DNA of 64,000 nt, from NCBI GenBank assembly GCA_000092065.1, contig CP000594.1; one strand, given 5' to 3'. This document shows positions 43,801 through 61,269 of the stretch, one piece after another. The DNA is from Ostreococcus lucimarinus. Its lineage: Eukaryota. Both the position numbers and the translations under genes were made by a program. Position 1 is the first letter of the stretch. Each line of letters begins with the position of its first letter. The notes beneath the pieces are model-generated. The model did not search any database and was not told the DNA's origin. It saw nothing but the letters and a program-made list of their open reading frames with translations.

Positions 43801-44142
43801 CGCGGAAGTTTGCATTCTTCACGATCTTTCAATCGACACCCGAAACAGTCTGAGCACGCACCGACAGTCACGCCGTTGTAGGTCCCGGCGTGATAACAGA
43901 ACTCTTCGCTTGATGCGAGTGCGTTCGTGCTCGCGTACGCACTCGAAACGGTGCAGTCGGCGTGAGAGAAACACACGTCGCCCGGGTCCGCGCGCGCGGT
44001 GTGCGCGACGGCGAGAGCGAAAACGAACGGCACGAGGAGGTTCTGAAACATTTTTGGTGTGGGTTTAGCTCGCGAAAAAGTTTCAGCGAGGCTTGACGTG
44101 CGCCGCAAAGTGAGGTTCGGAGATCCGGAGATCCGCCGGTTG

Positions 44143-44310
44143 ACGCCCCGCGGGGCGTGTGTGCCAGCCCGTAGGGTTTAGGGGATCGGACATATGGAGC
44201 CTCACTATTAAGACACACTGTCATATATATTAATGGATTTATGACAGTGTGTCTTAATAGTGAGGCTCCATATGTCCGACCGCGGGCACACATCCCCGCG
44301 GGGCGCCAGC
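44143..44310. repeat. MITE-like hairpin element. Perfect 38-bp inverted repeat (44187..44224 / 44241..44278) with a 16-nt AT loop, nested in a longer imperfect palindrome and flanked by ccccgcggggcg on both sides
   Basis: cggacatatggagcctcactattaagacacactgtcat / atgacagtgtgtcttaatagtgaggctccatatgtccg are exact reverse complements. Outer arms gccccgcggggcgtgtgtgccagcccg / cgcgggcacacatccccgcggggcg are imperfectly complementary. Confidence 0.55.
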
Positions 44311-44640
44311 AGGGTCAGGTCGCAATTTTGCGTTTTCCCGCTCAGCCTTCACTAGAAACGTGTCTAAACCGGCCACTTTTTAAATCTTGTTTTTTGCTAG
44401 GTTTTTACTGTCTCCGGGTCTCGGAGGAATCGCGTGGAGTGACCGGTTATGGGTTTAGTGGTTGGAGGTCCTGTGAGGAACTTTCTCTCCGTCACTTTTT
44501 TTCCATTTTTGAAAAAAAAAACGTCACATGTAAACTTTATAAATAAACCTATAACCTATAACCTATAACCTTGAAGGTTGAAATTTCTTAAGACCCGGGG
44601 TCCGCTGTTAAGGGGGGTCGGAACGCACAGAGAAATCGGG

Positions 44641-45180
44641 CTCGTCGTCCTGTGTATCAGCAGTCCTGTAGTAGGAAGTCATTTTTTGCTGTTTTGGGCA
44701 TCCCTTGCGTTCAGAGATTCCATTCTGAAGAAATCTTAAGCGAGGGCACCAAAAACTCAAGGTCTCAACGGTCGCACGCTTCAGACTAGTTACATCTTCT
44801 GTACCTCCAAGCAGCGAAGTGCTCCTGTGTGTCAGGTTTGTCTCACCAAACACCGAGATCTTCGAGAAGACGAACACGTTCCGCTGAGAGTTTGCACGTG
44901 CACCTGTCTTCCTTTGCCTGATTTGTGAGCCATCACCCCAGATTTGAATGTGGCGTATCTTATCGCGACACTCTCGCTTAAGATCTCTTCAGAATGGAAT
45001 CTCTGAACGCAAGCCGTGGATGTATTAAACTGTGAACGAGGCTAGTCATGGTTCGATTTTTTGGATTACAAGTGTAGGTCTACTTTTACGTTTCGTGGAC
45101 TCCGCTTGAGTCGGCCGATGTCACCACGTCAGGTGTTTCGAGTGCACTAGAGACGTGACCGCCGATACACAGGACGTCGA
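44641..45180. repeat. nested inverted-repeat structure: inner arms 44703..44746 vs 44966..45013 (44 bp, 1 mismatch), outer arms 44641..44660 vs 45161..45180
   Basis: Inner arm cccttgcgttcagagattccattctgaagaaatcttaagcgaggg pairs with its reverse complement ctctcgcttaagatctcttcagaatggaatctctgaacgcaagcc. Outer arm ctcgtcgtcctgtgtatcag pairs with gatacacaggacgtcgagc. Confidence 0.6.
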
Positions 45181-45837
45181 GCTCGGCGTGCCTGATTTCA
45201 CGACTCGGTGACCATGGTTTGAAACCGAAATGACCATCGGCTTCAGGCCCAGGCGCGGCCGCAATGCTACTTTAAACTTAATATATTTTTTTTGAAAAAA
45301 GAGTAGTAAGAGTAATAAAAATAAACTTTTTTTTTGAGTTGGGGCACCCCAACATGATAAAACCGCACATCGCGGCGAGCCATGCGCGACCATCAATTTG
45401 ATGTCATGTCTAGTCAGGCTCTCGTGGTAAAAACGTAAGATGTGCTTATTACAGCATATGCCAATTGCGCAGTAAATCTCGAAGGACGACATCAAACATA
45501 TCACAGAGCGCGCGCTTCACACCGTACAACACCATCTAAGGTACTTTCGACCGACGTTTTAGGCAATTTTGACTCGCCGACTGGTCTTTTCCAGTTGTGA
45601 CGTCAGATTCGATACGATACTGGGTTACGATGCGTTGAGTTGGACTGTAGAGGCCTGTACCCTTACATGCACATCTTCCATGGAGCGCTGGAGAAAAGGC
45701 ATTGTTGCATAATTATTGTCAAAATATAGATATTTTAATTTGACGCCACCATTATTAACTTTAAAATCAAGCCAGATCGCGACGACACTGAACATTTGAA
45801 TGTGTATTCACACTTGAGAGACACTGGTTTCGGCAAC

Positions 45838-46821
45838 TCACGATCGAGTACCGAAGACAAAATTAGCGCACTTTTTTCTATCATCTGCAGAATGCGAGTT
45901 TGGCGCATTTTTTACTGCGTCGCAGTGTTTCTTAGCCGCTTTGCACTGTTTGGAGCAGACATGCGGACATGCTGCCACCCAGGTTGGGTTGGAACATAGA
46001 TGGCGCCTGCCTTCCGGCTTGCCGCAGCCCCGCGGAATCGATTCACAGGGAGCCATGTTGGGTAGATCAGGCGTTTCCCAGACGGTACCAGAGATACCAT
46101 CGAAACCTGGGCACGTGTAATCGTCACTCAGAGTACAGCCAGTCGCCGCCGAGCCTTGACAAGATCTTTTCCAACCACCCAAACGCCTATGGCCCTTTGT
46201 ACGCTTTTGGCAAGTACCCGTCGACACGTTGTACGCTTGTTTAGCTTCCTTAGTATCAAACGAGTGACACACGCATGAATCAATCAGTGGCAAAGCGCGG
46301 ACCTGTACGGCCGGCTCATGCTCGCACGCCCAACACGAGTGTCCTCCAATACTGATCCCGAACCGCTGGCGCATCTCTGACGCGCAGACTTTCGCGCGTT
46401 CCTCCTCGTTGAGCTCCATTCCCGCGCAGGCACAAGCGCACTGTGCACGCGACCACTCCACTCCATCTGTCGCACCAACATAACCTCTCATATCATTCTC
46501 CAGTTGGGCGTGTTGGTCGTGGCATATTCTCGCACACGCCGCGAATGTCTTCATAGATTCTGGTAGTCCGTAGTGCACCGCGGCCTGGGACACCGCGTCG
46601 TCATCCATGAGTTTCCACCCCGTGACCCCCGAGCTCACTGGCCGCCGCCGCCGCCCGAGCTCACTTGACGGTGCATCCAAATCACCGCCCGCATCGCCTG
46701 GGTCCGTCGCCACCGCCGTGAACGGCGCATCCGCGTCAACGCCCGCGGCGACGTTCAGCGCCGCGGCCCCCACGAACAGCGCCAACGTCAAAGGTGACAC
46801 ACATTGCCTTCGAAACCCCAT
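45838..46821 (-). CDS. hypothetical secreted Cys-rich protein (signal peptide, ~30 Cys), possibly with a C-terminal ShK-like Cys knot
   Basis: First ATG at 46821 (MGFRRQCVSPLTLALFVGAAALNVAAGVDA, signal-peptide-like). The track's 46962 start is TTG. Many spaced Cys (CACACAGMELNEEERAKVCASEMRQRFG...HLCSNPTWVAACPHVCSKQCKAAKKHCD). Confidence 0.4.
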   Translation of the reverse strand: MGFRRQCVSPLTLALFVGAAALNVAAGVDADAPFTAVATDPGDAGGDLDAPSSELGRRRRPVSSGVTGWKLMDDDAVSQAAVHYGLPESMKTFAACARICHDQHAQLENDMRGYVGATDGVEWSRAQCACACAGMELNEEERAKVCASEMRQRFGISIGGHSCWACEHEPAVQVRALPLIDSCVCHSFDTKEAKQAYNVSTGTCQKRTKGHRRLGGWKRSCQGSAATGCTLSDDYTCPGFDGISGTVWETPDLPNMAPCESIPRGCGKPEGRRHLCSNPTWVAACPHVCSKQCKAAKKHCDAVKNAPNSHSADDRKKCANFVFGTRS

Positions 46822-47111
46822 CCCGCGCGCGCGATCTGCTTTTTCGTCCACGCGGCGTCCACTCGCGAACGCGCGGATACCGTTCGCTCTCTCAGCGCCC
46901 TCCACGTCCGATCGGTTCGGAAGTGACGCGCGCGCGCAGAATAGTTTCGCGTCACAACGCAATTATTCATTCCCGTGTTGATTTTATTCTATTCCAGGGG
47001 GTATGGGTATAGAGTTTACAGTGCCTTCGTACGAGATATTTCCCAACACCCTTTAGTACCAAAACCTAATTGCGTATCTTCCCTCACTTTCCGACGTCAC
47101 GCGCGCACGCG

Positions 47112-50100
47112 ATGACGTCGGCGACGCCGAAACGACGGCGCGCGCGCAGATTTTTGTATGCGTTCGGAGGACCGACACTCTTATTTAACCTCATGCGCGT
47201 GTTTGCCATGTCCGGGCTCGTGGCAACAATTACAATGTCAACAGCCGCGGGCGCCGCCCACGGTGGAGGTGCGAGCATGGACGAGGGACCGGCGCAAATG
47301 CATTATATGCCTGATCGATTTCGCAGCCTCGCGGGCGGCGGCTGGCTTACTATCTCATCGAGAGACGTGCACAAGAGCCTGATGCCCATGCCTGGGATGC
47401 GCGGTGGCGGGGAAGGCGCGAATGAGTCAGCAGTAAGTGGCAGCGCGATGAAGGACGAGGTGAAGATCGATCTGGCCCACGGTGACCCAGACGGTGAGCG
47501 ATCGTGCGATCTCGTGCATTACAAGTCATCCTCGAATGAGTTGGTGTGTTCACCACGTGCGGTGGATTGCTGTTTGGACGGACTCACGGCGCAGGAGCTC
47601 GCCAGCGTAAGCGATGGGTGCCCGTCGGTGAGACCAGAGCTGAACGTCGAGGTCAACGGTCAGCGATTGACGTGGGGCAGCGCTGGTAGAAATGGAAGGG
47701 ACACGCTCACGGACGAAAGTCTCAAAGTGAGCCATGGGCAGACGCCGACGATCGTGGCGGTCGAGCCGGCTGAGGTTCGTCCCGGTGAGTTGATCACGGT
47801 GTACGGACGAACGTGCTTTGGCGATGTTTGGAAGAAAGATGAAGATGATGGTTCGTCTCTACGTGATGATCCCGACGCACTGCGAGATCTATTCTCGGTT
47901 GAAGCGAGCGCAAGAGAGGATCCGCGCCAAGAAATTGGATTGGAAAAGTCTCTCTACAAGGTGCTCATCGGTGACCTACCGTGCGAGGTTCGAGATCCAC
48001 TCACAAACAGGTACTACCGATCCGAGCGCGGCGATGGTCCATACACAGCCCACCGGCAAACAGAGTGTGGACCCGTTAACGGTTGGTTTCAGTGCCGTGT
48101 ACCCCAAGACATCGATTCCGGTCTTCATCTACTTCATTACGAGACGTACACCAGAGGCAATGCTGTGATCCTGTCTGAGGCGCTCAGATGGAATGCATCG
48201 GACGCGTCCAAGGGCTACGTGCTGTCAGTGGTTGATGATAAGTCGGAAGATGAAGATCCACCGCGTGTTTATAACATAACGCAGCTCTCGAAGGATGAGT
48301 CCAAACAGCGACTCCTTGTTGAGGGTGCGTCTCTTGATGCGCCAAATATCGTCGTCGAGCTTGACGGGGAGCGCTGTGGTGGAAAAAAGGTTGTGTCCAG
48401 ATCTGGCATCGAGGTTGAATGCTCAGGTTCAGCTGGAGCGAGCTCGCAGTATCACTACGGCCCCCCCGCGTGGCTGCGTGAAGACTGGGTGTTCAAGGAC
48501 AAGAATAATAAGTTTGTCGGTGGCAAAGCGTGGTCTAACGCTCTCCACGTTTTGAAGCAGCGTGGAGAAAGGTACAACCCTCTCGCCGACGAAGTCATGG
48601 ACGCTTTAAGCTCGGCATTGGCAACGAATGGCATTGTCCGCGGGTACAAGATCGAGAAAGTTCAACAGTATCTCACGAGCCCATCGGTTGGATCACCATA
48701 TGTTGAGGCAACTAGCGGCATGAAAGCGGCGCACGCCGGACTCATCCGTCACCGAAGGATACGGAATGCTGTGTTTGAACGTGTAAGCGGAGTCATCACC
48801 GCCAAAGCAAACGGGCGAATGCGCGTGGCGATCGCCAATGCGGCGGGCAATAACATGGTGCTTCGTGTGCGACATGTTTCCGACAACTTAAATGTATTCA
48901 AACCTTGGTTGTTAGTTTCCAAATTTTGCGGCACCAGATACAGCAGACAAAACATTTATCGATACGGCTTTTCACAGTGGTTCAGTGTTCGTGGTAACGA
49001 AAAATACTATATGGAATTTCTGATGAACTTGGACCCCAGATACTTGCACAATTTCGGGGGATTCGATGTTAAGATGGAATTTTCCTACGACGCGGGTAAT
49101 CCTGCGGGATCAATTGGGCAACTTACGCACACGACAACGCCTCACGTGCCCAAACGAGCGCATGGTGGCGATTACGTCGTGCGCTTTAGCGGCGCTTCGA
49201 AAACTGCGATCAGATTCGCTCATAATGCAACTTCTTCAAGAAGCAATTTTGAGTGGAAACTCTTCAGTGGCGGCAAGACCATCGAGTTCAATACGAAGAA
49301 TTGGTTGCATGCACGCGAACACGTGCGGAAAGTTAGAGACGCTCTGCGATGGGCTAACTGTACCGCGCTGCCTGAAGACTCAAAGATGTGGGACGCGGAC
49401 TCGACCCATTCTTCGCACCCATTCGACGTCGAGAATCGATGGCTCATGGTGCGTGATACGCAGACCTTCAAAGAGCCCACCACAGATTGGAACTTCATAT
49501 GGCAACGTCGCATGGGCGGATTCAGAGGCGCGTCGATCGACTGGAGTACCTCGTACTGTTCGACACACAGTCAAAAATTTGATTTGTCGTCACTACCCCC
49601 AGGAAGAGTCATCACTCCTTCTTCTCATTTCGACGTACCTGCATCTTCTCGTGCGACGACGAATAAGTTTCTGAACTTTGCCTACAAAGTCACTCCGGGT
49701 ACGCGAGCGACCTTGTTACTTCGTCTAAAGTACCGAAGCGGTAATCGGGACATATCGACCACGTGCGCGGTTCTCCTCACCCATGAACAAGCGACTGGGA
49801 ACGTGAAGAACTTCGATCACCCAGCGTGTGTGGACCTTCGAAGCGTCTTCAAGGATGATGGAGAGTGGCACTTTATTTCATTCGATTGGCGAACTGCGTT
49901 GGCCGGTGGTGAGTATGCCCCGAGTTATTTGGGCGAGGCTATGTTCCCGCATAAAGTGCAAGTTCAACTCGATGGTATCGGTGTCGGCGCGCAGAGATTC
50001 CTCGGCAAGTGTCCGAATAAACAGCGCTTAGCGGAAATGTATGTCGGTGATGAAGGAAGTGAACTGCGCGGTTACCTCTGGTTGGATAGCGTTTCTGTGA

Positions 50101-53100
50101 CACAGGAACGCTACTCTCCTCAACGAGTCGAGACGCCCTCTGCACAGCTCGGAGGTATGCAAGAAGGCGTTCACGCAATCACAGATATTGAATATTCGGT
50201 CATCAGCCGAAGCGATGGCTCTAAGTGCAAATCGCTGTCGGACTGTGATATCATCGTGAGCCTGCGTCAGGTGAAGAGATGCATTGATGCGCAGTCGCGA
50301 GGCGATTTCAATATTTCGCCGATGGTGATGTCACAGACGAGTCCAAACCCGCAACCCGCGACGGTCTCGTGTGGTCGTCACTATGCAGCGAACTGCTCGA
50401 CTTGTCCGTGGAAGGTGTCCGCGGAAGGTGTCCGTGGAAGGTGGATGGGCTGGAAATATTGCAATGGTGCGTGCGAATGGAGATGGCACGGGCGTATCAA
50501 TGCAGGTGGCACGTGCGTGTCAAAGCCAGCTCCAACTCCTCCGGCAATAACAGTCACGGATCGTACTTCTTCAACACGTGGAACCGTCACTGCACAGATC
50601 ACAGGGGGGACGATGACGCAATTTTCCACCTCTGCCAATTCATCTGAAGTGCAGGACGCATTACGTCATGTCCTCGGAGCGCACGACGGAGGCTTCGTGG
50701 TGAGTCCAAGCATGGATTTGTTTGATGCGTGCGGTGTGAGCGCTCATCGCATGCGCGTTGCGCATGCGAGCGATCTCGAATCGATCCAAGCGCGGTACAA
50801 AGAAGTCGTCAATGGTGTGCCCCTGGGAATGCTACCGAAATCTTCCCGAGGCCGCACTGCGGAAAATGACGCAGGTCTCCTTAATATAACTGTGAATGTC
50901 TCAGGCGGCCTCGCTGAGATAGTCGCGACAGACGAGTCGAGCGATTTCATCGGTATGGTGCCCCTGGACACGAGAACAGATCTCGATGTGCGCGCCTTGA
51001 TTCGCGGTGGCGACGCCGTGTTGGCGACGGCTGTTGTGACGGATGGCGACACAGTCGTACCATGTTCTGTCTCACCTGACCGTATGTCTGCGACTGGCTT
51101 CAAACAAGTTCCGAACGGGCAGGCATTCGTTGGCGATGCTTCTTGCCACATCATTGTGCCACACGAGGAAGTTGCATCTGACGCGACCGTGCACGCTCCG
51201 ACGGAGTTGAATCAGGATGGTTTTCCCTCACTCGGTGAGTCCGTGAGTCAATCGAGTCCGACAGACCAGAAACGTCGACGGGACGTCGAAACTATCCGTC
51301 GGCGCAGCATGTCAAACTCGCTAAAATTTCCTGGCCATGATACCTGGGCAAAACGAGATCTATCGATGAGTAGATCCGATCTTGGACGATTAACAGTCAC
51401 AGTGGTTGGTTTTGGTGCGCGTGTGCACAACGGCGCCGCGCACCGTAGAGCTGCGAATCACGCGCGGAAACTGTTGAAAACGGAACTCGTCGCGAAGGAT
51501 GCAGGTCAGGGGAGTCTCAACAATACGAAAAGCAAGTATGAATTTCCGGCGGGCGCGGGTCGATTCAGTGATCCATCGACGTGGGGTCCTCGGGGAGTGC
51601 CGGACCAAAACTCGACGGATATGCTCTTTATTCCTGCCGGTTTCAATCTTACTCTGGATGTCGCCGATACGTACTTCCGCGTGTGGGTGATTGAGGGGCA
51701 CCTAAATTTCCAACGGGGCATGAACATCACGATGCAAGCAGAAATGATCGTCATCAACGGCGACGACGCACACTTTAGCATTGGGAGTGAAACACGTCCC
51801 TTTGAAGATCAGGCGAATATCATCATGCACGGTCACTGGCGATCCCTCGGCTTGCCCAAATATGGGGTGAAGTGCATCTCACTGACGAGCGGACGATTAA
51901 CATTCTATGGTCAGCACGTCACGCCTTGGATGGAACTGGCCACTACGGCTTCAGCTAACGCAAACGTTATTTCCGTCAGAAGCAAGGAAGGCAAGACTCC
52001 AGATCTCGCCGGATGGAAACCGGGTGCGAGTATTGTGGTGACGTCAACCTCTTACGGGGACAGGAGATGTCGGCAAAACCGTACAGACGACTGTCAACCC
52101 GAGGAGCGCGTTATTGAATCTGTCACTCCTAGAGGCAACTTTGCGGACATAACTCTCGATCGACCGTTGAAGTATGAACATTTGGGTGAATCCGTGAATG
52201 TGGCGGGAAGCCCCCGCGGGGCTACGATTGAGCGTCGTGCTGAAGTAATGCTTCTCACGAGAAATATCAACGTGCGCGGCACGACTGAACACAATGGGTA
52301 TAAGCTCGTCGGCTTTGGCGCGCACACTATGATGATGTCTGGTCAAATGGTGTTGAAAAATGTTGAATTCGGCCCAAACGTCGGACAGGCCTTCCAACTG
52401 GGTCGGTATGCCATCCACTACCACACGCCCAATGAAAAGATGTTCAAATATGGTTTGACAGCCTCAAATGACCCGAGGATGCAGGGCGCAGACCAGCGCT
52501 TGAGTCGTGTGGAGGGAGTCTCGGTCCACCAATCAAACAACCGTGCGATCGCGGTGCATGGTTGTTATCGACTGAACATCATTAACAACGTCGCGTACAA
52601 CATCTTGGGACATGGGATGTTCGTTGAAGATGGTGTGGAAATGTGGAACCTCTTCAAGGACAACGTTGTTTCTCTAGTGCATCGCTCTTTCTCTCTTTTG
52701 AACACTGATCAAACACCTGCAGCGTTTTGGATATCGAACGCTAACAATTTCTTCATCGGTAATCGAGTGTCATCGAGTAATCATCATGGATATTGGTTTG
52801 ACCCACCAGGAGGACCTACCGGACCGTCGTCGCGAACGCTCACGGGGCCTTTGGAAATCCAAAAATTAAGCACTCGGAAGGTACCGCTCGGCCAGTTTGA
52901 AAATAACAGAGCCCACTCGAATGGCCACTCCGGACTTTGGATTGATCAAATAAACACGGTCTTGCAGCAAGGCGGCAGGCTCAGAATGTACATGGTCGGT
53001 ACCCACGTATGGAACAATGGAATCAACGGTTTCGGAATGATTACCGGCGTTGGGCATCTACAGATTGTGAATACGTTTGCCATGGGCAACGGGATTGACA

Positions 53101-56100
53101 TCATGTATATCAAGTCGACTGGTGCGACGTGGGCGATGCCGACGAATGGTTGGTCCGGTAACTTGGTGTACAACGCCACCCTTCGCGGTGACCCGAAACG
53201 CAATACCCAGGCAATCGGCTGTCCGCACGGCGGATGGGTAACATTTAACGATATCCTCATTAGTGGCTATCAAAGTAGGTTGCCCCCAATACACCACTGC
53301 GCTGTGTGTCCGGGTTTCAAAGGCGGCATGGAAGTTCGTTTCATGAATATGAAATTCGTCGACAGTGATACAAGGCGGCTCCGCGGTGGTTCAACATCTC
53401 GACCGCGCGTATTCTGGAACGGGTACAACTCCAACCTTTTGCTCGACGTGGATGGGACCCTGAGTGGATCGCCAGGTCCACGATGGGCGCATTCAGTCAA
53501 GGGCGCCAGTGATGATCCCAGGAACCGGCCGACGGGTCATTTTCCGCCAGAACACTGCACCCTCAATGATCACATCGGAGGTGTTGTTTGCGACGCCAAC
53601 ACTGTGTCGTTGCGAGAGGTGCAGTGGCGCCGTATCAAGCCCATGACCCTTATACCCATGGCGATGCAGACAGCACCTGATCAAAATGCAGGGCAAGTGA
53701 ACTTTTATCATTACGACCATATCGAGCGACGTTTCAATTGGCGTACGACATTGGTTATGGTTAAAAGTCCGAACGCGAAGCCATACATCCATAACTTTAC
53801 GTTTAAGTTTAAAACATGGCAAATTGATGACCCGGACGCTTGGTACATGGAGGTCCGTGAGCTTCAGCCCAATGAATGGGCTATAATGCGATTCCCCACA
53901 CTCCGCAATCCGTGGCGTTGGAACTTGAATTCAAGAATACCGACGGTCACATTGAATAACTACAATCAAAGTGATTATAGTTTCAATGAGAGCAAGGCCA
54001 TCACCACCACGAGCAACGAATGGCTGAGTTGGAAAAATCACAAGTTCGGCGACCACACATACCTACCCGTTGTGGAGACAAGGGATGTTAATGTAAAGCC
54101 AGATCCAGGGCTGCTCGATATCATGATATCTGGCAAGCGCGAACAAGGATGGACACAATCGTACGCCCTCGGTGCCAACTATGATGGCGCGCGTGAAGAT
54201 ATGCCCGTCTGCACCACTTCATGCGGAAGCTCGGCAAAGTCAACATGTGGCATGAAACGCTACAACTGCAGACCGGGCGACAAGAAACGATGTTTGCCGA
54301 TGGAAAAGCCTGCAAACTGCTTCGACAATCGACCTATACCCGAGGTAGATCCCGAGCCTAAAACTTTTTCCTGGTGCGACTCAAACGAAGTTTGGTCTCC
54401 GCCGGCATTCGGGGATGACGTCATGATCAAGGCTGGTTGGACGGTCATCTTAGATGAAACCTGTCTGGTGACCAACATAACTAGACACGTGGATTTATAT
54501 GGGTCCCTGTTGCTTCGTGATCCAGGCGCTGGTAAAACCATCAAGTTCCGAGCGCAGACCATCCACGTCGCGGCTGGGATTGGATACCTCGAAGCTGGTG
54601 ACCAGGATGATCCGATATCGAATGGCGACGTTCGTATCGAGCTTTATGGGAACAGATTTTCTAACGCTCGAATGGGCTACGGTATGGAGACAAAGTACAT
54701 CGCCGTTCTCGGACACCTCAGCCTCGTCGGAAAGGCGAGCGTGGAGCAAACGTGGTCGACGCTTAGAAGCGATGCGCCCGCGGGAAGCAGTACAATTGAA
54801 ACGACAGCCTGTGGCGGTTGGAATACTGGCGACACGCTCATGATTGGTGGCGCTATGCACAATTGGACCGGGATCAAGCATGCTTGGTTTTTGAGCGCGG
54901 AGCGCTGTGATATTTCCTCCATAGCAGTTGCGAGCGAAGGTTGCGTCATACGGTGTACTTCCAGCTTCAACTACACGCACTCAGGCCCGGCCCAAAAGCA
55001 CGAGGTCAGTTTTGGTGGAATGCCAGTGACTCTCATGCATAGGCGCTCTCCAGGTGGGCGCGTGCAGGTAGTTGGCATGGAAGACAAAAACAAGGCACTG
55101 GCAGAGCAGCACTATGGTGCTGTTATTACTATCCTGAAACCGAAAAAGAAAGGCTATGACGCAAAATTGGCTAAGAGATTCAAGATAGAACTCAAGACGC
55201 CCGAGCGCATGCAAGCGGCAACTGAAAGCATGAAACATGATCCCCCGCCTGAATGCCACCGCAGACAAGGTTCGGCTGTGATCGTCAATGTCAACTTTGC
55301 GCATTGCGGTCAGCGGCACTCTAGTCGCGCGTGTGTTTCTTTTGCCGCCGGTATTGGCGCTGAGTATCGAGCTACGTTCGCAGAAACGACATCGATGGCA
55401 CTCGTTGCGAACAACACATTTGCGGACGCCTACAATTTTGCCGTGAGCGCAGCAGGAGATGGAATTATTATAGAGAATAACGCCATCGCACAAACCTATC
55501 ACGGTGGATTCGAGGTCTCTGGTGCGAACAACACAATGTCTAATAACGCAGCTGTTCGATTATTCGACGATGTTAGTGATTACTTTCACGACATTGGGTC
55601 GGTTGGTTTCAAGTTGTCGGGATCAGGGAAATGGTATACTAACGTCGTCGCCTCCGTGCAGTACACTGGGTTTAAAATTCCTGGATATCCGTGCGAAATG
55701 ATGACTCCAGACGTGGAGGATGAGGGTTTAGACGTTCGCGCTGTGACCACCGTTCCCGCCGAACCTACAATGCGTGACCTTCGCGCGTATGGTGGCATGG
55801 TAGGCGTGAATCTGCGGGGCGGGCGTACTCGGATGGTCACACGTGAACCGGTGGAGGCCTACGCGCCGCTCGAGTGTCGCCAATGGAGCGACTTCGAGAT
55901 TCGTTCAATGGTTTGGTACGGCGTAACCACGTTTGGTCAGGGAAAAACGTCTATTGTGTTGAAAAACTTTAATATTTGGGACACCGGACTTGGTTTCGCG
56001 CTGTGGATGGTCAACGGTGGCTCAGCCGCAGGTTCGAGCAGCGAGCGAGGGCATTTCGCAGAAATCAGTGACACGACGATAATCGGTTCTGCAAGTCGAT

Positions 56101-58946
56101 GTAGAAACGACGGCATTGGGTTTCCCGCGTTTTACTTAACGGCAGAACCGTACCGGCCGGATCAAGGAGTGAAAACGCCATCGCGCTTTGGTGGAACGAC
56201 GCTAAGAAACATAAGGTTTCGCGATTTCGGCGCATGTGAAAAGAAAGGCGTTCGTCAAGTTCGTCAAAAGAATTACGCATTGGTGAACGCCATGAACCGT
56301 GGGCGATACGCGTGGGTTTACTACGACAACGCGAACCCCGTGCGATCTTCTGGCTTGAGCTTTAAGGGTGTACCATTCGAAAACAGGTTACTCATGATCC
56401 ATCCAAGCTGGGGTCGAATAGGCAATGGGAAATGGGGCTGTGCCCAAATGTACTGCGACGGACATCGCAACACGTTTGTGATGGATGAGGACGGTTCGCT
56501 GCTCGGTGATAACGCCGCATTCGGGACCATCTTGCCCGAAAACGAGATTGGTTGGTTCAAGAAACTGGCCTATATCGATCCGCTCAGCCGTGACATTCTT
56601 GAAGATTTGGTTCCATTCACACACCAGTGGCTGCCCAACGGTACCAAACTGACGCCCATGCGAGGGAAGCTCTACGACGAGCCAGGCCATCTCAAAATGG
56701 GCTGTCGAAAGGAGGCTTCATGGCAGGCGTGGCTCTGTCCCGAACACAGGCACAGGCAAATAATCCACGAAAGTTTGGACGGCGATCACACGAAGAGGCG
56801 CATCTCCCCAACTTCTGTTCTCACAGAGCTACCATCTCAGAGCAAGCGTTTCATGTCTCTGTACACTGGGCCTGCGAAATACGGAGGAAACTGGGCAGGT
56901 AAAATAACCAGACATAACACACTCTGGATTACCGGCCATGTCGGCGCGACGCACACGATCCACCACTCGAGCACGAATCCATCCATTTCGCGCGTAACAT
57001 TTGCCGATGCCACGGAGGATGAGGCCGTGCATGTCAAGCTTTATTACGGCGTACCAAATCGTGTCGACGTTTACGTCGATGGAAGGTACGTCCCACCGCT
57101 TGCGAACATCACTTGGGATCAGCCGGACGTTCCTGATATCAGTAGCTCGGGCAGTCTTGAGACTATGCCACACGGCGCGAACTTTTACAATCGTCTGAAC
57201 GGTTATCTCGAATTCGTGCTGAGAGGCCCTAAAGAAGTGCAAATTCGCGTCTCGAACATCGTCGTACTCAGCGCTACCGTCACAGTCACCGAGGACACAT
57301 TCTTCGTGCCGGGAATAAAAGCACTGGTGAACAACATTCGTCTCTTGCTTAACATTCCGGAGGAACGAATCGCAGTCGCGGGAGTTGGCGATTTCAAGCT
57401 AGCGAAACAAATCGCAAAAACTGAAGCATCCTCCCTTGGGTCATCTGGAGACAGTACTGAGCACGTCATCGAATTGCTCATAGAGGAGGCAACTACAACA
57501 CAGCTCAGTTCGAGCGAGGAAGACGTCGAAGACGTAGATCCGGTCGCAGAGGCAAACGCGTACTCGAACTCTAGTTCTGAGCTTACTTCGCTGGCTCGGC
57601 GTGTGCAGCAAAACGCTAAAAATTTGACGTTGGGAACTGCTCTGGGGTTGGCAAATTCAACATTACCAGTTGAAAAGTCACCTATTGACATGGTGGCGGG
57701 CTGGACGTGTGAAACCAGAATGTATAACGATGGCACTTGCGATTGTGATTGTGGCGCGTGGGATCCTGATTGTGACGGTGGGCAGACTATCTTGCGAGGC
57801 TGCCCATCGCACGCGGAGATCAACAGCACCGGTACCCCATTTGAATTCGCAAATAGTGTACGGGCATACTGCGTTAACAATTCAGACGTCGTGACGTGTA
57901 GTTTAGCAGTGCCTCCTGATGACCTCTGCAACGAGTGGCCATGCCTGGATAGTGATCCGTCTGATGTTCTCGTCTCTTACTTACAACGGGCCTCTAGTAA
58001 TGAGTTAAAATGCGTCAAGCGGCAGAGTTCGCCACATGCAATGCATACGGGAGAGTGTGCTTTAAGCATGTTGGACGAGCGTGGCGACACCCTTGAACCG
58101 ATTCTGAGCTGGAACTCCACAGATTTGCCTGCTTCACCACAACCACAAACGTCATCTTCGGTACCGTCTTCACCGCGTCCGGATGTCCCCGCACCAGTAC
58201 CGTCTTCATCGCGTCCGGATGTACCCGCACCAGTACCGTCTTCGCTGCGTCCAGATGTACCCGCACCGGTACCGTCTTCGCCGCGTCCGGATGTACCCGC
58301 ACCGGTACCGTCTTCGCCGCGTCCGGATGTACCCGCACCGGTACCGTCTTCGCCGCGTCCGGATGCTCCGCATCGAGGCCCCTCACGAGAGTCAGCACAA
58401 GCGCGACGAGACCGCCGTCGTGACGACCGCGCGCGTCAAAGACGAAGCATTAGAAGGCTTCAAAGACAAATCGCTAGAAGATTTTCTGTCTCACAGGAAG
58501 ACTTGAGAAATGCGACAACATTGAGCTCGATTGTTGAGCTTGCGCAGGCTGAGGTGCAAGAAGCCCAACGCTCCGTACCAACACTACAGACGAAATATGA
58601 GTCGGCGAAGGCTCTGTACAAAGGGAACAGAACTACTACAAATAAAGCGGCGCGCCGCCAGGCAAAGATAAATTTGCGCGTTGGAAGAAAACAACTGAGG
58701 CGCGCGAACAAGAAGCTTGAATTACTTGAAGAACTCAGCAGGGCACTCACCACACCGGAACAAGGCGGCGCTTTTGCCCTTGGTATCGGTAACCCACGCG
58801 GACGAGAAAATTCGATGCTCGTCGTCGCTGTCGCGATGGGCGCGTGCGCCATGGCCTCCCTCGCCGTGCGATCTCACCGCAGAGCGAACAAACGACTTTA
58901 CGTGGATGAATCCACGGCACTCTTGAGGAATCGTAGGCGTTTTTGA
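47112..58946 (+). CDS. giant (~3,940 aa) fibrocystin-L/PKHD1L1-like single-pass membrane protein. Order: signal sequence, TIG/IPT-like domains, G8 domain, parallel beta-helix (PbH1) repeats, second G8 domain, beta-helix region, 6 x 11-aa Pro-rich stalk repeat, coiled coil, C-terminal TM, short cytoplasmic tail
   Basis: First in-frame ATG at 47112 (the track's 47070 is TTG). Signal-like MRVFAMSGLVATITMSTAAGAAHG. TIG-like QTPTIVAVEPAEVRPGELITVYGRTCFG. G8-1 is FSDPSTWGPRGVPDQNSTDMLFIPAGFNLTLDVADTYFRVWVIEGHLNF...IVINGDDAHFSIGSETRPFEDQANIIMHG. PbH1-like runs include NRAIAVHGCYRLNIINNVAYNILGHGMFVEDG...NANNFFIGNRVSSSNHHGYWFD. G8-2 is SWCDSNEVWSPPAFGDDVMIKAGWTVILDETCLVTNITRHVDLYGSLLL...GDVRIELYGN. 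Stalk repeat is RPDVPAPVPSS x6. TM is MLVVAVAMGACAMASLAV, tail RSHRRANKRLYVDESTALLRNRRRF. Confidence 0.8.
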   Translation: MTSATPKRRRARRFLYAFGGPTLLFNLMRVFAMSGLVATITMSTAAGAAHGGGASMDEGPAQMHYMPDRFRSLAGGGWLTISSRDVHKSLMPMPGMRGGGEGANESAVSGSAMKDEVKIDLAHGDPDGERSCDLVHYKSSSNELVCSPRAVDCCLDGLTAQELASVSDGCPSVRPELNVEVNGQRLTWGSAGRNGRDTLTDESLKVSHGQTPTIVAVEPAEVRPGELITVYGRTCFGDVWKKDEDDGSSLRDDPDALRDLFSVEASAREDPRQEIGLEKSLYKVLIGDLPCEVRDPLTNRYYRSERGDGPYTAHRQTECGPVNGWFQCRVPQDIDSGLHLLHYETYTRGNAVILSEALRWNASDASKGYVLSVVDDKSEDEDPPRVYNITQLSKDESKQRLLVEGASLDAPNIVVELDGERCGGKKVVSRSGIEVECSGSAGASSQYHYGPPAWLREDWVFKDKNNKFVGGKAWSNALHVLKQRGERYNPLADEVMDALSSALATNGIVRGYKIEKVQQYLTSPSVGSPYVEATSGMKAAHAGLIRHRRIRNAVFERVSGVITAKANGRMRVAIANAAGNNMVLRVRHVSDNLNVFKPWLLVSKFCGTRYSRQNIYRYGFSQWFSVRGNEKYYMEFLMNLDPRYLHNFGGFDVKMEFSYDAGNPAGSIGQLTHTTTPHVPKRAHGGDYVVRFSGASKTAIRFAHNATSSRSNFEWKLFSGGKTIEFNTKNWLHAREHVRKVRDALRWANCTALPEDSKMWDADSTHSSHPFDVENRWLMVRDTQTFKEPTTDWNFIWQRRMGGFRGASIDWSTSYCSTHSQKFDLSSLPPGRVITPSSHFDVPASSRATTNKFLNFAYKVTPGTRATLLLRLKYRSGNRDISTTCAVLLTHEQATGNVKNFDHPACVDLRSVFKDDGEWHFISFDWRTALAGGEYAPSYLGEAMFPHKVQVQLDGIGVGAQRFLGKCPNKQRLAEMYVGDEGSELRGYLWLDSVSVTQERYSPQRVETPSAQLGGMQEGVHAITDIEYSVISRSDGSKCKSLSDCDIIVSLRQVKRCIDAQSRGDFNISPMVMSQTSPNPQPATVSCGRHYAANCSTCPWKVSAEGVRGRWMGWKYCNGACEWRWHGRINAGGTCVSKPAPTPPAITVTDRTSSTRGTVTAQITGGTMTQFSTSANSSEVQDALRHVLGAHDGGFVVSPSMDLFDACGVSAHRMRVAHASDLESIQARYKEVVNGVPLGMLPKSSRGRTAENDAGLLNITVNVSGGLAEIVATDESSDFIGMVPLDTRTDLDVRALIRGGDAVLATAVVTDGDTVVPCSVSPDRMSATGFKQVPNGQAFVGDASCHIIVPHEEVASDATVHAPTELNQDGFPSLGESVSQSSPTDQKRRRDVETIRRRSMSNSLKFPGHDTWAKRDLSMSRSDLGRLTVTVVGFGARVHNGAAHRRAANHARKLLKTELVAKDAGQGSLNNTKSKYEFPAGAGRFSDPSTWGPRGVPDQNSTDMLFIPAGFNLTLDVADTYFRVWVIEGHLNFQRGMNITMQAEMIVINGDDAHFSIGSETRPFEDQANIIMHGHWRSLGLPKYGVKCISLTSGRLTFYGQHVTPWMELATTASANANVISVRSKEGKTPDLAGWKPGASIVVTSTSYGDRRCRQNRTDDCQPEERVIESVTPRGNFADITLDRPLKYEHLGESVNVAGSPRGATIERRAEVMLLTRNINVRGTTEHNGYKLVGFGAHTMMMSGQMVLKNVEFGPNVGQAFQLGRYAIHYHTPNEKMFKYGLTASNDPRMQGADQRLSRVEGVSVHQSNNRAIAVHGCYRLNIINNVAYNILGHGMFVEDGVEMWNLFKDNVVSLVHRSFSLLNTDQTPAAFWISNANNFFIGNRVSSSNHHGYWFDPPGGPTGPSSRTLTGPLEIQKLSTRKVPLGQFENNRAHSNGHSGLWIDQINTVLQQGGRLRMYMVGTHVWNNGINGFGMITGVGHLQIVNTFAMGNGIDIMYIKSTGATWAMPTNGWSGNLVYNATLRGDPKRNTQAIGCPHGGWVTFNDILISGYQSRLPPIHHCAVCPGFKGGMEVRFMNMKFVDSDTRRLRGGSTSRPRVFWNGYNSNLLLDVDGTLSGSPGPRWAHSVKGASDDPRNRPTGHFPPEHCTLNDHIGGVVCDANTVSLREVQWRRIKPMTLIPMAMQTAPDQNAGQVNFYHYDHIERRFNWRTTLVMVKSPNAKPYIHNFTFKFKTWQIDDPDAWYMEVRELQPNEWAIMRFPTLRNPWRWNLNSRIPTVTLNNYNQSDYSFNESKAITTTSNEWLSWKNHKFGDHTYLPVVETRDVNVKPDPGLLDIMISGKREQGWTQSYALGANYDGAREDMPVCTTSCGSSAKSTCGMKRYNCRPGDKKRCLPMEKPANCFDNRPIPEVDPEPKTFSWCDSNEVWSPPAFGDDVMIKAGWTVILDETCLVTNITRHVDLYGSLLLRDPGAGKTIKFRAQTIHVAAGIGYLEAGDQDDPISNGDVRIELYGNRFSNARMGYGMETKYIAVLGHLSLVGKASVEQTWSTLRSDAPAGSSTIETTACGGWNTGDTLMIGGAMHNWTGIKHAWFLSAERCDISSIAVASEGCVIRCTSSFNYTHSGPAQKHEVSFGGMPVTLMHRRSPGGRVQVVGMEDKNKALAEQHYGAVITILKPKKKGYDAKLAKRFKIELKTPERMQAATESMKHDPPPECHRRQGSAVIVNVNFAHCGQRHSSRACVSFAAGIGAEYRATFAETTSMALVANNTFADAYNFAVSAAGDGIIIENNAIAQTYHGGFEVSGANNTMSNNAAVRLFDDVSDYFHDIGSVGFKLSGSGKWYTNVVASVQYTGFKIPGYPCEMMTPDVEDEGLDVRAVTTVPAEPTMRDLRAYGGMVGVNLRGGRTRMVTREPVEAYAPLECRQWSDFEIRSMVWYGVTTFGQGKTSIVLKNFNIWDTGLGFALWMVNGGSAAGSSSERGHFAEISDTTIIGSASRCRNDGIGFPAFYLTAEPYRPDQGVKTPSRFGGTTLRNIRFRDFGACEKKGVRQVRQKNYALVNAMNRGRYAWVYYDNANPVRSSGLSFKGVPFENRLLMIHPSWGRIGNGKWGCAQMYCDGHRNTFVMDEDGSLLGDNAAFGTILPENEIGWFKKLAYIDPLSRDILEDLVPFTHQWLPNGTKLTPMRGKLYDEPGHLKMGCRKEASWQAWLCPEHRHRQIIHESLDGDHTKRRISPTSVLTELPSQSKRFMSLYTGPAKYGGNWAGKITRHNTLWITGHVGATHTIHHSSTNPSISRVTFADATEDEAVHVKLYYGVPNRVDVYVDGRYVPPLANITWDQPDVPDISSSGSLETMPHGANFYNRLNGYLEFVLRGPKEVQIRVSNIVVLSATVTVTEDTFFVPGIKALVNNIRLLLNIPEERIAVAGVGDFKLAKQIAKTEASSLGSSGDSTEHVIELLIEEATTTQLSSSEEDVEDVDPVAEANAYSNSSSELTSLARRVQQNAKNLTLGTALGLANSTLPVEKSPIDMVAGWTCETRMYNDGTCDCDCGAWDPDCDGGQTILRGCPSHAEINSTGTPFEFANSVRAYCVNNSDVVTCSLAVPPDDLCNEWPCLDSDPSDVLVSYLQRASSNELKCVKRQSSPHAMHTGECALSMLDERGDTLEPILSWNSTDLPASPQPQTSSSVPSSPRPDVPAPVPSSSRPDVPAPVPSSLRPDVPAPVPSSPRPDVPAPVPSSPRPDVPAPVPSSPRPDAPHRGPSRESAQARRDRRRDDRARQRRSIRRLQRQIARRFSVSQEDLRNATTLSSIVELAQAEVQEAQRSVPTLQTKYESAKALYKGNRTTTNKAARRQAKINLRVGRKQLRRANKKLELLEELSRALTTPEQGGAFALGIGNPRGRENSMLVVAVAMGACAMASLAVRSHRRANKRLYVDESTALLRNRRRF
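58156..58375 (+). repeat. 33-bp tandem repeat x6 (ccgtcttcrccgcgtccggatgtmcccgcaccrgta) encoding (SS[PSL]RPDVPAPVP)6 inside the giant gene
   Basis: Read directly. Units differ by 1-2 synonymous or conservative substitutions. Confidence 0.85.
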
Positions 58947-59072: not shown

Positions 59073-59544
59073 TGAAATCACTTAGCCATCCTGCCCGAGT
59101 CTGACGAAAGTAGCAAAGTAGCACTTTTTGCACGCCTCCCAAAGGTGGCCCCTGGGGAAATTATTTATTTTGTGGAGTGGTGAAAAATAAAAATTCCCAC
59201 TGGATACCTTCTGGGACACTGCTTTTTTGCTACTTTTGCTACTTTTTCGACGAGATCGGGGTACTGCAAAGCACACGGCGAAGACGGGTGGCCGATGATC
59301 CGTGTGCGCGTGTCGCCTTTGATGGGTCGCTCCCGTTCATGACTCAAGAGTTGTCGCGCGACCTCGCGCGTGCACGAGGGTGCCACGTTTTAGGTACCAG
59401 AGGTGCCCATTTCTTCGTGGTAAGATGGTCCCTCGTGTATCACGCCGCTCCCCTTTAAGCATGAAAAGTTGTGTCCAATATATTGCGCGCGATGTCCGAT
59501 GGTACATCATACAATATCATAGTTAAGCCACACTTATCATACGA

Positions 59545-59705
59545 CGGTGGCGGTCCACCTGTCGGTCGTCACAGAAAAGTTGCGTCTGAGACTGAGGATG
59601 TGTGTTGCTCATGTGTCTTATATATACCTCATACATACATATATTAACATTTACAACGATATGTATGGGGTGCCCAGCCCATCCGCGCGGCGTGGCTTCT
59701 GCCGG
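59545..59705. repeat. copy A of a ~150-bp dispersed repeat (ggcgg.ccacctgtcggt...gaaaagttgcg...gaggatg...ctcat.aatacatatatta...ggtgcccagcccatccgcgcgg)
   Basis: Alignable by eye to 60450..60613 at ~75-80% identity with indels. Both copies end in the identical 22-mer ggtgcccagcccatccgcgcgg. Confidence 0.6.
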
Positions 59706-60024
59706 TTTTTGCCATTCGAACCATGAGAAACTACAACTCTATAATAACTTAAACTTAAAATTTTTTTAAGTTTAAGTACCTACACGTTAGTAATTTTGAA
59801 AATTTTTGTGACCCGTGACTCCCAAGCAAAAAGTCGCGCGTTGCTCCAGTGGCTGGGCACCCAAACATGGACCCAGACTCATGAATCATGAACCGTGAAT
59901 AGCCGAGTCCCAGGATTGACGAATCATGACTCGTATCAATCCGCCGCTCCCGAATGCGTGTGCCCCGTGTGACGAAATCGTCTCCGGGATCCGGAGGAAA
60001 AAACCTCCAGGAGGAAAACCTAAA

Positions 60025-60116
60025 GCGCGCGATCGACGTCTCCGAACGTCAAAGCCCGCCGCCTCCCTCCGCGCGCGATCGACGTCTCCGAACGTCAAAG
60101 CCCGCCGCCTCCCTCT
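60025..60116 (+). repeat. 2 x 46-bp tandem duplication (gcgcgatcgacgtctccgaacgtcaaagcccgccgcctccctc)
   Basis: Read directly. The copies differ at 1-2 positions. Confidence 0.8.
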
Positions 60117-60449
60117 GCGCGTGCTCGCGCGCCCGAGGAACGGTCAGCGTTTCCGCTCCGGCGTCCAGTAGGAGTTCCCGTGAAACGGACCAAAAGGAGG
60201 CTTTGTTGCGTGTTTGCCAGTTTTCGAGGACGTTGGAGTGAGAGGGCGCTTGCCGAGATGCCCTCCATCTTGATCTCGCGCGAAAACTGTTTCATGTTCC
60301 GCCGGGCCATCGTCGCCGATCGCGTCGCCGTGCATACTGTCCACGGGCTTAAAAAGGTCGCGGAGGTCAACGTTATCACTCATGGTCATTTTTTGACGTT
60401 TTGTTTCTGTCGCGCCCGACATCTTGCGTCGGAGTGGGTCAATGGCGAC

Positions 60450-60613
60450 GGCGGCGGCGGCCCACCTGTCGGTGTTTACGGAAAAGTTGCGGCTCGAAAT
60501 GAGGATGGCGTGGCCCATGTTTCTTATAGATACCTCATGAATACATATATTACAAGTTATAATGCTATTAATATATAATTGATTGGATGGGTGCCCAGCC
60601 CATCCGCGCGGGC
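60450..60613. repeat. copy B of the ~150-bp dispersed repeat, lying just 3' of the GIY-YIG ORF
   Basis: See copy A (59545..59705). Confidence 0.6.
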
Positions 60614-60644
60614 TGTATCTAGCTAGCTATGTATGTGCGACGGA

Positions 60645-61145
60645 TTAAAAACAGCACCAAATATTTTTTAAACAGCACCAACATTTTTTATAGTCGGTTT
60701 CATCGGTTTCCTCGATGGTCGAGCCTAGTTCCAGTTCACCGAGGAGCTGCTCGTCTTCTTCATGCAACCACGGTTCGTCCGCGCGTCCAGGCACAACGTT
60801 CGGACACTGGTTCACAAAATGGCCCAACTGACCACACCTGAAGCATCGATCACCCGCACCTCGCATCATGAGTTCGATAATCTCGAGGTGCGATCTCGGG
60901 AGAACGATCTGACTGAACGTCCCACCGCGTACGTTCTCAACGCCGTGTTCGGCCATGAGTCGTAACACGTGCTTGTCCTCGTCAAATGGTCCACATTCCT
61001 CGATGAACAGTCGACGGTACGGTTTGTATTTTTTCGTCCACGCGGCACCCATGCCGCGAAAATGGTCGTCGATCCTCGACCTGTTGTCGCACCGCCCCAC
61101 GTAGTATTTGCCCTGCGCACACGCGAGGCCGTATATCAGTGACAT
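60645..61145 (-). CDS. GIY-YIG nuclease-domain protein fused to a CCHC zinc knuckle and an acidic, Cys/Trp-rich tail (166 aa). Candidate selfish or mobile-element nuclease
   Basis: Verified ATG at 61145. N-terminus MSLIYGLACAQGKYYVGRCDNRSRIDDHFRG...AAWTKKYKPYRRLFIEE...HVLRLMAEHGVENVRGGTF carries the GIY...YYVG, conserved R, and catalytic E / N-V-R-G-G elements of GIY-YIG nucleases. CFRCGQLGHFVNQCP is a CX2CX4HX4C zinc knuckle. C-terminus is ETDETDYKKCWCCLKNIWCCF. The ORF lies in a ~50% GC repeat-flanked island. Confidence 0.55.
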   Translation of the reverse strand: MSLIYGLACAQGKYYVGRCDNRSRIDDHFRGMGAAWTKKYKPYRRLFIEECGPFDEDKHVLRLMAEHGVENVRGGTFSQIVLPRSHLEIIELMMRGAGDRCFRCGQLGHFVNQCPNVVPGRADEPWLHEEDEQLLGELELGSTIEETDETDYKKCWCCLKNIWCCF

Positions 61146-61269
61146 GATCCATGTGGTCTAGTGCCCCCGGGCCGTCGTCGCGCGCGCCGCGGTGTGCGGG
61201 GGCACGCAGACCAGCGGCGGCGGTCGAGTCGCAGATGCGTCCATCACTGACGTCGAACGAGAATCGGGA

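Follow-up and report, generated by a model that had tools for sequence, protein, structure and literature searches.

We analysed a 64,000-nucleotide stretch of contig CP000594.1 (GenBank assembly GCA_000092065.1) of Ostreococcus lucimarinus CCE9901, referred to below as the window, and found in it a giant gene whose predicted product is supported as a divergent member of the fibrocystin-L (PKHD1L1) family. Our preferred reading, to which we give a probability of roughly 70%, is that this is a functional single-exon gene for a type I membrane glycoprotein of that family, likely a glycan-binding protein of the cell coat or of adhesion. A first-pass annotation, made from the nucleotide letters alone, had suggested that a unicellular alga encodes a giant protein like fibrocystin-L with two G8 domains; the host is indeed such an alga, and the central claim was supported by Pfam, by HMMER searches and by BLASTP against the PKHD1L1 of Amia.

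The giant gene and its G8/beta-helix core

One plus-strand open reading frame (ORF) spans positions 47070-58946, and both the ORF listing and the translation show 3,944 stop-free codons from its first ATG (47112), in agreement with the single uninterrupted ORF of about 11.8 kb described earlier. Stops make up about 4% of random codons at a GC content of about 53%, which puts the probability of a chance ORF of this length at about 1e-74. The frame was also open in three independent environmental contigs from a metagenome scan (L006-L008), with 3,898 of 3,898 available codons open and 3-6 nucleotide differences from the window, and in all 1,375 codons of a short-read contig from a 96%-identical lineage (L009). 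Comparison with L009 over 1,354 codons gave 0.10 synonymous (dS) and 0.027 nonsynonymous (dN) substitutions per site, and at this dN/dS of 0.27 the gene is under purifying selection. Against a second relative (L005), dN/dS was about 0.35 overall, with minima of 0.21 in the first G8/helix module and 0.17 in the post-helix/SEA region. On the sequence evidence, then, we take the giant ORF to be a real, functional and conserved gene.

Two long-read assemblies (L004 and L005) contained colinear copies at about 92% nucleotide identity, both with repeated frame switches. These copies were considered as pseudogenes and rejected as such, because the same-lineage L009 copy is intact and the ATPase gene neighbouring the L004 copy is fragmented in the same manner, so that the frame switches were read as assembly errors. 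The closest full-length relative was P0137 (EukProt g3352.t1, 4,370 aa), with 38% identity over 3,176 residues. For a further relative, P0138 (3,544 aa, derived from the Sequence Read Archive), at least ten sequencing runs gave contigs of about 11 kb on which it stands alone, as would fit one long mRNA in its organism. No poly(A) tail was found at the 3' end of a transcript-like contig (L003).

Two G8 domains were observed in the product, each followed by a parallel beta-helix as is characteristic of the fibrocystin-L family, and the Pfam profiles thereby upheld the predicted order of G8, PbH1 beta-helix and second G8. The first G8 domain scored 88 bits (E 5e-25, segment scanned alone) and the second 69.7 bits (E 2.8e-19), where the Pfam cut-off for G8 is 22.9 bits. 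CEMIP_beta-hel (PF24606) matched the first helix at residues 1734-1942 with 149-157 bits, and the right-handed Beta_helix (PF13229) matched the second with 39 bits in a scan of the whole protein; the region of this second helix was also colinear with the second module of PKHD1L1. Self-BLAST did not detect the internal duplication of the G8/helix unit, its copies having diverged too far.

Sequence searches turned up a single solved structure, the TMEM2 ectodomain (8c6i), matched by the first G8/helix module at E 7e-29. The HMMER alignment to it jumps from TMEM2 residue 167 to residue 317, leaving out residues 168-316, which contain the inserted lectin-like domain 1 (PMC10206443). Because of this omission we read the giant protein as lacking the lectin-like insert of TMEM2 and CEMIP, and no Pfam ILEI/GG domain was matched in it. 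The motifs GRYxIHxH, NRAxxVHG and FxEDGxExxN were all kept in the first helix.

An exhaustive HMMER search of 1.84 billion representatives with residues 1480-2679 returned 3,569 matches (426 below 1e-30); most of the best-scoring ones were proteins 3,000-6,600 aa long, each with two to four matched stretches. Ten of the top matches were looked up, and those with names were a fibrocystin-L-like/PKHD1L1 protein of Branchiostoma (E 1.7e-67), a PKHD1-like 1 protein of Amia (E 1.6e-65) and, from the protist Mucochytrium, a protein with a G8 domain. The Amia PKHD1L1, which carries 14 TIG domains, PA14, two G8 domains and two CEMIP_beta-hel domains, aligned by BLASTP over both modules: residues 1411-2204 against 2074-2870 (E 7e-67, a high-scoring segment pair of 794 aa), and residues 2428 onward against 3018 onward (E 2e-39, a pair of more than 570 aa). 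The best named homologues are thus family members whose homology extends beyond single domains, and the order of signal, IPT, PA14, G8, helix, G8, helix, SEA-like module, transmembrane helix and short tail is that of the family.

Homologues of fibrocystin-L have already been noted in green algae (Pei & Grishin 2017 as cited in PMC13566292; PMC13424714), and the same two sources state fibrocystin-L-type proteins for green algae, alveolates, euglenozoans and haptophytes (PMC13424714, PMC13566292). Nothing in the literature that we searched linked such proteins to Ostreococcus. The giant protein is new and divergent (poor in IPT domains, with a clade-specific module, without the furin site and with a stalk of its own) and represents no new kind of system; with the family already reported from green algae, what makes it of interest is a host without cilia, the lack of an annotation and the way the locus behaves.

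The exact product, tried with ten alternative starts, was not among 15 billion public proteins, where neighbouring O. lucimarinus proteins were present. The exhaustive HMMER search brought up nothing of the product beyond short fragments (P0139 and P0165; 88-94% identity). Since the flanking genes, a DOMON protein and the next plus-strand gene, carry consecutive accessions (ABO99582 and ABO99583) and the product is missing from the protein sets, we infer that a full-length model of the giant gene is absent from the reference annotation.

Modules from the signal segment to the cytoplasmic tail

A Kyte-Doolittle scan gave only two hydrophobic segments above threshold, at residues 22-42 and 3900-3921. 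Together with the 23-residue tail, this hydropathy profile bore out the expected plan of signal, single C-terminal anchor and very short tail, a trait of the fibrocystin-L family, the signal peptide being predicted. The ectodomain between them comes to about 3,850 residues. The N-terminus was 87% conserved in L005.

TIG/IPT repeats, also part of the first-pass annotation, were confirmed in part. Three degenerate copies were recognised through the orthologue and hhalign, but Pfam TIG had no match in the giant protein, even at E <= 10 on separate segments, and the array is much reduced. In P0137, the stretch that aligns with residues ~384-446 of the giant protein is accepted by Pfam as TIG; a custom TIG profile made from 1,007 IPT domains of related giant proteins gave clear matches in P0137 and P0138 and weak ones in the giant protein, at colinear positions; and hhalign of a three-sequence clade alignment against the TIG alignment returned probabilities of 91, 86 and 69%. 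The median number of IPT domains was 10 in 87 homologues 2,500 aa or longer, only 8 of which, the two closest relatives included, had three or fewer; the long array of animal proteins (about 12-14 copies) is represented here by the three degenerate copies only.

The PA14-like domain that follows was found at profile level, not by Pfam: hhalign gave 95% probability (E 3.3e-8) against a profile from 69 PKHD1L1-type sequences, the direct match of a PA14 profile to the giant protein was weak (E 0.0016, residues 553-638), and P0138 matched at 4.5e-8. A PA14 domain within the N-terminal IPT region, as in the fibrocystin-L family, is therefore present at this level of support.

Next comes a clade-specific module of about 720 aa, for which Pfam and Protein Data Bank (PDB) sequence searches found no match, and which was observed among the fetched homologues only in P0137, P0138 and two metagenome loci (L001 and L002). 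An AlphaFold2 (AF2) model of residues 690-1420 from an 11-row alignment had a predicted local distance difference test score (pLDDT) of 35.8 and was discarded as unusable. A word-index search with residues 181-1100 found no match, a weak negative since it also missed P0137 and P0138, and nothing significant came from searching the PDB by sequence with the first 1,483 and the last 1,548 residues. A degenerate IPT array was tried as an explanation of residues 690-1420 and rejected, the TIG search across this region being negative (probability below 1%). Within the module, a Cys/Trp-rich insert at residues ~1085-1135 (nt ~50364-50516; CSTCPWKVSAEGVRGRWMGWKYCNGACEWRWHG...) had no counterpart in P0137, P0138, L001 or L002. 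Short tandem repeats of 13 bp and 23 bp overlap with it, and by its sequence it looks like a recent in-frame expansion.

The region after the second helix (residues 3020-3425) is common to dozens of giant homologues. An AF2 model of residues 3000-3680 from a 14-sequence alignment had a mean pLDDT of 58.9, with values of 70-90 over most of residues 3075-3430, and Foldseek against the PDB found with this model a sole significant match, TMEM2 (8c6i, E 1.3e-10); by sequence, a profile search weakly matched TMEM2 residues 955-1011 (E 0.004). The SEA-like unit that follows aligned with the SEA-like region of the homologues and showed a beta-alpha-beta-beta-alpha pattern at moderate pLDDT, with no SEA profile or significant structural match. 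Pei & Grishin 2017, as reported in PMC13566292, described an Rx[KR]R site in the SEA domain of fibrocystin and fibrocystin-L. In the alignment most homologues had RRKRR-type motifs in the loop between the second and third strands, where the giant protein has KLAKQIAK. Pfam found no match in the Cys-rich region beyond this unit, which carries the motif DGxCDCxCGxxDPDC.

The (RPDVPAPVPSS)-type tandem repeat of the stalk is real, but its period is 36 bp (12 aa) with 5.8 copies, instead of the 33 bp and six copies first given, and it comprises five full RPDVPAPVPSSx units and one partial. The comparison of repeat number suggested in the first-pass annotation did reveal a difference, as Tandem Repeats Finder (TRF) counted 5.8 copies in the window and 8.0 were present in both L004 and L005; short-read contigs had 3-4 units, which may be collapsed. 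Stalk repeats of relatives were unrelated (e.g. TPPNTGESTPT x4 in P0137), and because of this the repetitive spacer, as judged from these sequences, is a recurring feature that would have been acquired independently.

The juxtamembrane segment was at least 88% conserved in L004/L005, its helix-prone parts are free of Pro and Gly, and the coiled coil predicted before the membrane is plausible by eye. The tail reads RSHRRANKRLYVDESTALLRNRRRF, and its dileucine-type motif is kept as DESTPLL in L004, L005 and L009. The whole part from the Cys-rich module to the tail, including DESTxLL, was at least 85% conserved in L004/L005. Coordinates of these modules and of the flanking features are given in the table.

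Features of the giant gene and its surroundings (window positions; aa, residues of the giant protein)
Feature	Position	Strand	Basis
Second palindromic element	44136..44313		Inverted-repeat search
Miniature inverted-repeat transposable element (MITE)-like element, nested terminal inverted repeats, upstream island	44637..45185		Inverted-repeat search
Divergently oriented Cys-rich neighbour, signal-like start (Met 46824)	45838..46962	-	Translation; 374-aa gene
Complete coding sequence of giant protein, single exon	47112..58946	+	ORF list and translation; 3,944 aa + stop
Hydrophobic N-terminal segment (aa ~22-50) preceded by basic KRRRARR, probable signal peptide	47175..47261	+	Kyte-Doolittle
Three degenerate IPT/TIG-like domains (aa ~60-170, 212-370, 384-446)	47289..48449	+	Orthologue, hhalign
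PA14-like domain (aa ~450-700)	48459..49211	+	hhalign against PA14 profile of PKHD1L1-type proteins
Clade-specific module (aa ~701-1420)	49212..51371	+	No Pfam/PDB match; shared by few relatives
G8 domain 1 (aa 1490-1610)	51579..51941	+	Pfam PF10162, profile 1-124 of 124
Small insert and parallel beta-helix 1 (aa ~1611-2000)	51942..53111	+	Pfam PF24606 CEMIP_beta-hel
G8 domain 2 (aa 2429-2551)	54396..54764	+	Pfam PF10162
Parallel beta-helix 2 (aa ~2700-3020; Beta_helix at 2758-2814)	55209..56171	+	Pfam PF13229
Post-helix beta-rich region (aa ~3075-3375), like part of TMEM2 ectodomain	56334..57236	+	AF2 and Foldseek
SEA-like beta-alpha-beta-beta-alpha module (aa ~3376-3530) without RxKR motif	57237..57701	+	Alignment, AF2 pattern
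Cys-rich region, DGxCDCxCGxxDPDC motif (aa ~3531-3655)	57702..58076	+	Common to P0137, P0138, P0142
Pro/Ser-rich stalk, 36-bp x 5.8 tandem repeat (RPDVPAPVPSSx, aa ~3686-3755)	58159..58365	+	TRF, motif positions
Arg-rich, then helix-prone juxtamembrane segment (aa ~3757-3880), RDRR and RQRR	58380..58751	+	Read from sequence
Transmembrane helix (aa 3900-3921)	58809..58874	+	Hydropathy 2.18; conserved in relatives
23-aa cytoplasmic tail, acidic dileucine-type motif DESTALL	58875..58943	+	Read from sequence
Solo copy of 41-nt inverted-repeat arm, 84 nt past stop codon	59030..59070		k-mer search; arm 44704/44973
Downstream repeat island: ~150-bp direct repeat 907 bp apart and 46-bp x 2.1 tandem repeat	59541..60611		Repeat search, TRF

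Compared with fibrocystin-L/PKHD1L1, the giant protein shares the plan of a giant single-pass surface protein with an IPT and PA14 N-terminus, two G8/helix modules without the lectin-like insert (33-35% core identity), the post-helix region, what may be an SEA-like module ahead of the anchor, and a tail of very few residues. It differs in having three degenerate IPT domains instead of about 14, with the clade-specific module at the position of the IPT array, in lacking RxKR in the SEA loop, in its additions (the Cys-rich DGxCDCxCG module, the 12-aa Pro-rich stalk and the Arg-rich, helix-prone juxtamembrane segment) and in a host without cilia. The ectodomain order of fibrocystin/polyductin (PKHD1), IPT-PA14, G8-PbH1, G8-PbH1, SEA (here a putative SEA-like module) and transmembrane helix, is likewise shared, with 939 aa from the first G8 domain to the second against 808 aa in human PKHD1. 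Fibrocystin, however, has a tail of 192 residues with a ciliary targeting sequence, where the tail of fibrocystin-L has 9 (PMC13424714); the fibrocystin tail also bears nuclear and mitochondrial signals, and fibrocystin undergoes Notch-like proteolysis at a furin site, whereas the giant protein has no furin motif in its SEA loop.

TMEM2 (CEMIP2) and CEMIP resemble the giant protein in a G8 domain that runs on into a parallel beta-helix assigned to one and the same Pfam family, in the kept helix motifs and in a similar post-helix region (8C6I). TMEM2 differs in having one G8/helix module, two lectin-like (GG) domains and type II topology (layout from PMC10206443). The traits of that group, a single G8/helix module with one GG domain inserted in the helix and a second at the C-terminus, were not observed in the giant protein, which has two modules, no GG domain and a C-terminal anchor. 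Its whole plan recurs in P0137, P0138 and L001/L002, down to the clade-specific module, the N-terminus with its degenerate IPT/PA14 part and the Cys-rich module with DGxCDCxCG. These relatives are only 22-38% identical to it outside the core, and P0137 and P0138 each retain two basic residues as a dibasic site in their SEA loop. The tail of P0138 is 70 aa long. P0137 ends, in place of a transmembrane helix and tail, in its Pro/Thr repeat, an EGF-like motif and a C-terminus like a glycosylphosphatidylinositol (GPI) signal (residues ~4230-4370), which echoes the recent report of GPI-anchored PKHD1L1 in platelets (PMC13566292).

Proposed role and competing explanations

To our knowledge Ostreococcus is naked, with neither wall nor scales, and has no flagella at any known stage, so the scales and flagellar fraction suggested in the first-pass annotation do not apply to it. 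Stalks rich in AP, SP and VP are O-glycosylated under the general rules for green-lineage hydroxyproline-rich glycoproteins; the stalk of the giant protein probably would be as well, forming a spacer off the membrane whose length varies between lineages. By analogy with PKHD1L1, described as a surface-coat protein of stereocilia (PMC6707252), the giant protein may be a major component of the coat (glycocalyx) or of adhesion in the plasma membrane of such a wall-less, non-flagellate cell. The PA14-like domain and the two beta-helix modules would bind glycans, either of the cell's own surface or external ones, and the acidic dileucine-type motif of the tail may serve in trafficking. Any shedding would use the juxtamembrane Arg cluster, because the SEA loop is without the RxKR site of the homologues.

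Several points weigh against this picture. The coat or adhesion role and the binding would follow from analogy and from domain types, and all the motifs that the first beta-helix shares with TMEM2 are kept, which would allow a catalytic role. The IPT array that forms much of animal PKHD1L1 is nearly gone, and 18% of the protein (residues 700-1420) is without an assignable fold. The full-length protein is missing from public protein sets and hence has no proteomic or annotation support. GC content at third codon positions (GC3) is 0.56 in the giant gene versus 0.69-0.82 in housekeeping neighbours, which may mean low expression; similarly low values were observed in the neighbouring VPS13-like and DOMON genes.

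We consider it unlikely, if well worth weighing, that the giant protein is instead an enzyme in which one or both G8/beta-helix modules cleave cell-surface polysaccharide, as reported for TMEM2/CEMIP, and the rest is scaffold. Its substrate might be an acidic algal or bacterial exopolymer; we know of no hyaluronan in Ostreococcus, which counts against the idea. The CEMIP beta-helix and TMEM2 matches of the first helix, its conserved His/Asp/Glu motifs and the many bacterial homologues with a single G8 domain would fit an enzyme, as would the occurrence of parallel beta-helices in polysaccharide hydrolases and lyases, of which they are typical (PMC10206443), and the intrinsic hyaluronidase activity reported for TMEM2 (PMC10474455). 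The hyaluronan-depolymerising activity of TMEM2 is itself disputed, however (PMC10474455 versus PMC10206443): TMEM2 has no assigned active site, the purified ectodomain was inactive in one study, and the mutations that abolish activity lie in lectin-like domain 1, absent from the giant protein (PMC10206443). Nor does the family as a whole have a known active site. PKHD1L1, a closer relative than TMEM2, is presented as a coat protein, not an enzyme, in PMC6707252.

Very improbable, in our view, is a recent acquisition of the G8/beta-helix modules from bacteria, or a non-functional, decaying ORF rightly skipped by gene callers. Many bacterial G8 proteins match the first helix at about 30% identity, and the absence from public protein sets, the GC3 below that of neighbours and the frameshifted L004/L005 copies could be taken in the same sense. 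The best matches, however, were giant eukaryotic proteins with both modules (33-54% identity), which ranked above bacterial proteins with one, and the eukaryotic family is matched by the IPT, PA14 and SEA-like parts as well. Short-read contigs of two lineages carry the ORF intact, dN/dS is 0.27, the frameshifted ATPase neighbour of L004 points to assembly error, and low GC3 is found in the VPS13-like and DOMON genes too.

A cilium- or flagellum-associated receptor like vertebrate fibrocystin is hardly credible, even with family membership and the ciliary targeting sequence of the fibrocystin tail (PMC13424714) in its favour. The 23-residue tail, nearer to the 9 residues of fibrocystin-L than to the 192 of fibrocystin, carries only a dileucine-type motif. 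As far as we know, moreover, Ostreococcus has no flagella.

Fibrocystin and fibrocystin-L are disease proteins (polycystic kidney disease of the autosomal recessive type, ARPKD, and the deafness DFNB124) that are usually discussed with cilia or stereocilia. A conserved, selected homologue in one of the smallest free-living eukaryotes, without cilia, wall or scales, argues for an ancestral cell-surface role, and a glycan-binding role would follow from the domain types. Ostreococcus offers a compact, haploid and genetically tractable system for studying the double G8/beta-helix core, and with the full-length model missing from the public protein collections searched, proteomic and comparative studies based on these may overlook what is probably the largest surface protein of the cell.

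The locus and its neighbours

The giant gene stands head-to-head with a Cys-rich neighbour, their ATGs about 290 bp apart. The neighbour was observed at 80% amino acid identity and in the same arrangement in L005, had no Pfam match, and could be a co-regulated partner of the giant gene. Repeat islands on both sides of the gene, as first described, were confirmed by the inverted, direct and tandem repeats that flank it. Copies of the 150-bp direct repeat lie at 59541-59690 and 60448-60611, and the 46-bp tandem repeat at 60025-60121.

Nucleotide homology to the ~92%-identical lineage (L004/L005) is limited to the 374-aa gene and the giant gene (45834-58938), ending at both borders. In that lineage (L004/L005; also L009, L012, L016 and L017) the unit has a TPR/RPAP3 gene and a cation ATPase at one border and a CID-domain gene at the opposite one, whereas in the window it is flanked by the DOMON gene and a gene at 61874. 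The genomic surroundings of the two-gene unit thus differ between close relatives. The inverted arms of the upstream MITE-like elements are 41-43 nt long; one has its solo copy 84 nt past the stop codon of the giant gene, and part of a second is found again at 61384. An environmental contig (L011, ~1370-1540) has a 170-nt copy of the MITE-like element downstream of its gene, and because of this copy the insertion state of the element appears to differ between populations. The downstream island (59862-61278) is about 1.4 kb long in the window versus about 0.83 kb in L007/L008, which are otherwise 99.8% identical, a structural polymorphism.

It is a doubtful proposition, which we hold with little confidence, that the giant gene and its Cys-rich neighbour form a two-gene surface cassette relocated between close Ostreococcus lineages at a fast-changing locus. 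Were it true, a MITE-bordered, stalk-variable cassette might serve, for example, as a contact site for prasinoviruses, grazers or mating partners, and the ancestral role of the fibrocystin family would not have been ciliary.

The neighbouring ORFs are those of ordinary eukaryotic genes, for Tudor-SN, a beta-ketoacyl synthase, a P-type ATPase, a VPS13-like protein, RRP12, RRS1 and poly(A) polymerase. GC content ranges from 47% to 73% across the window (1-64000, 2-kb windows), with GC3 of 0.49-0.57 in the long genes (giant gene and VPS13-like) and the DOMON gene, and of 0.69-0.82 in housekeeping genes. The VPS13-like gene (12468-26739, plus strand) has 47-55% GC and a GC3 of 0.49-0.57, well under its neighbours. 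It consists of five consecutive ORFs with VPS13_N, Vps62-like and VPS13_C matches, a split that implies short introns or frame changes. The poly(A) polymerase (37910-39706) and the DOMON protein (41731-43800) each have two NCBI accessions per identical sequence, 34-35 numbers apart, and these paired accessions suggest that a large segmental duplication, identical in sequence, is present in the O. lucimarinus assembly.

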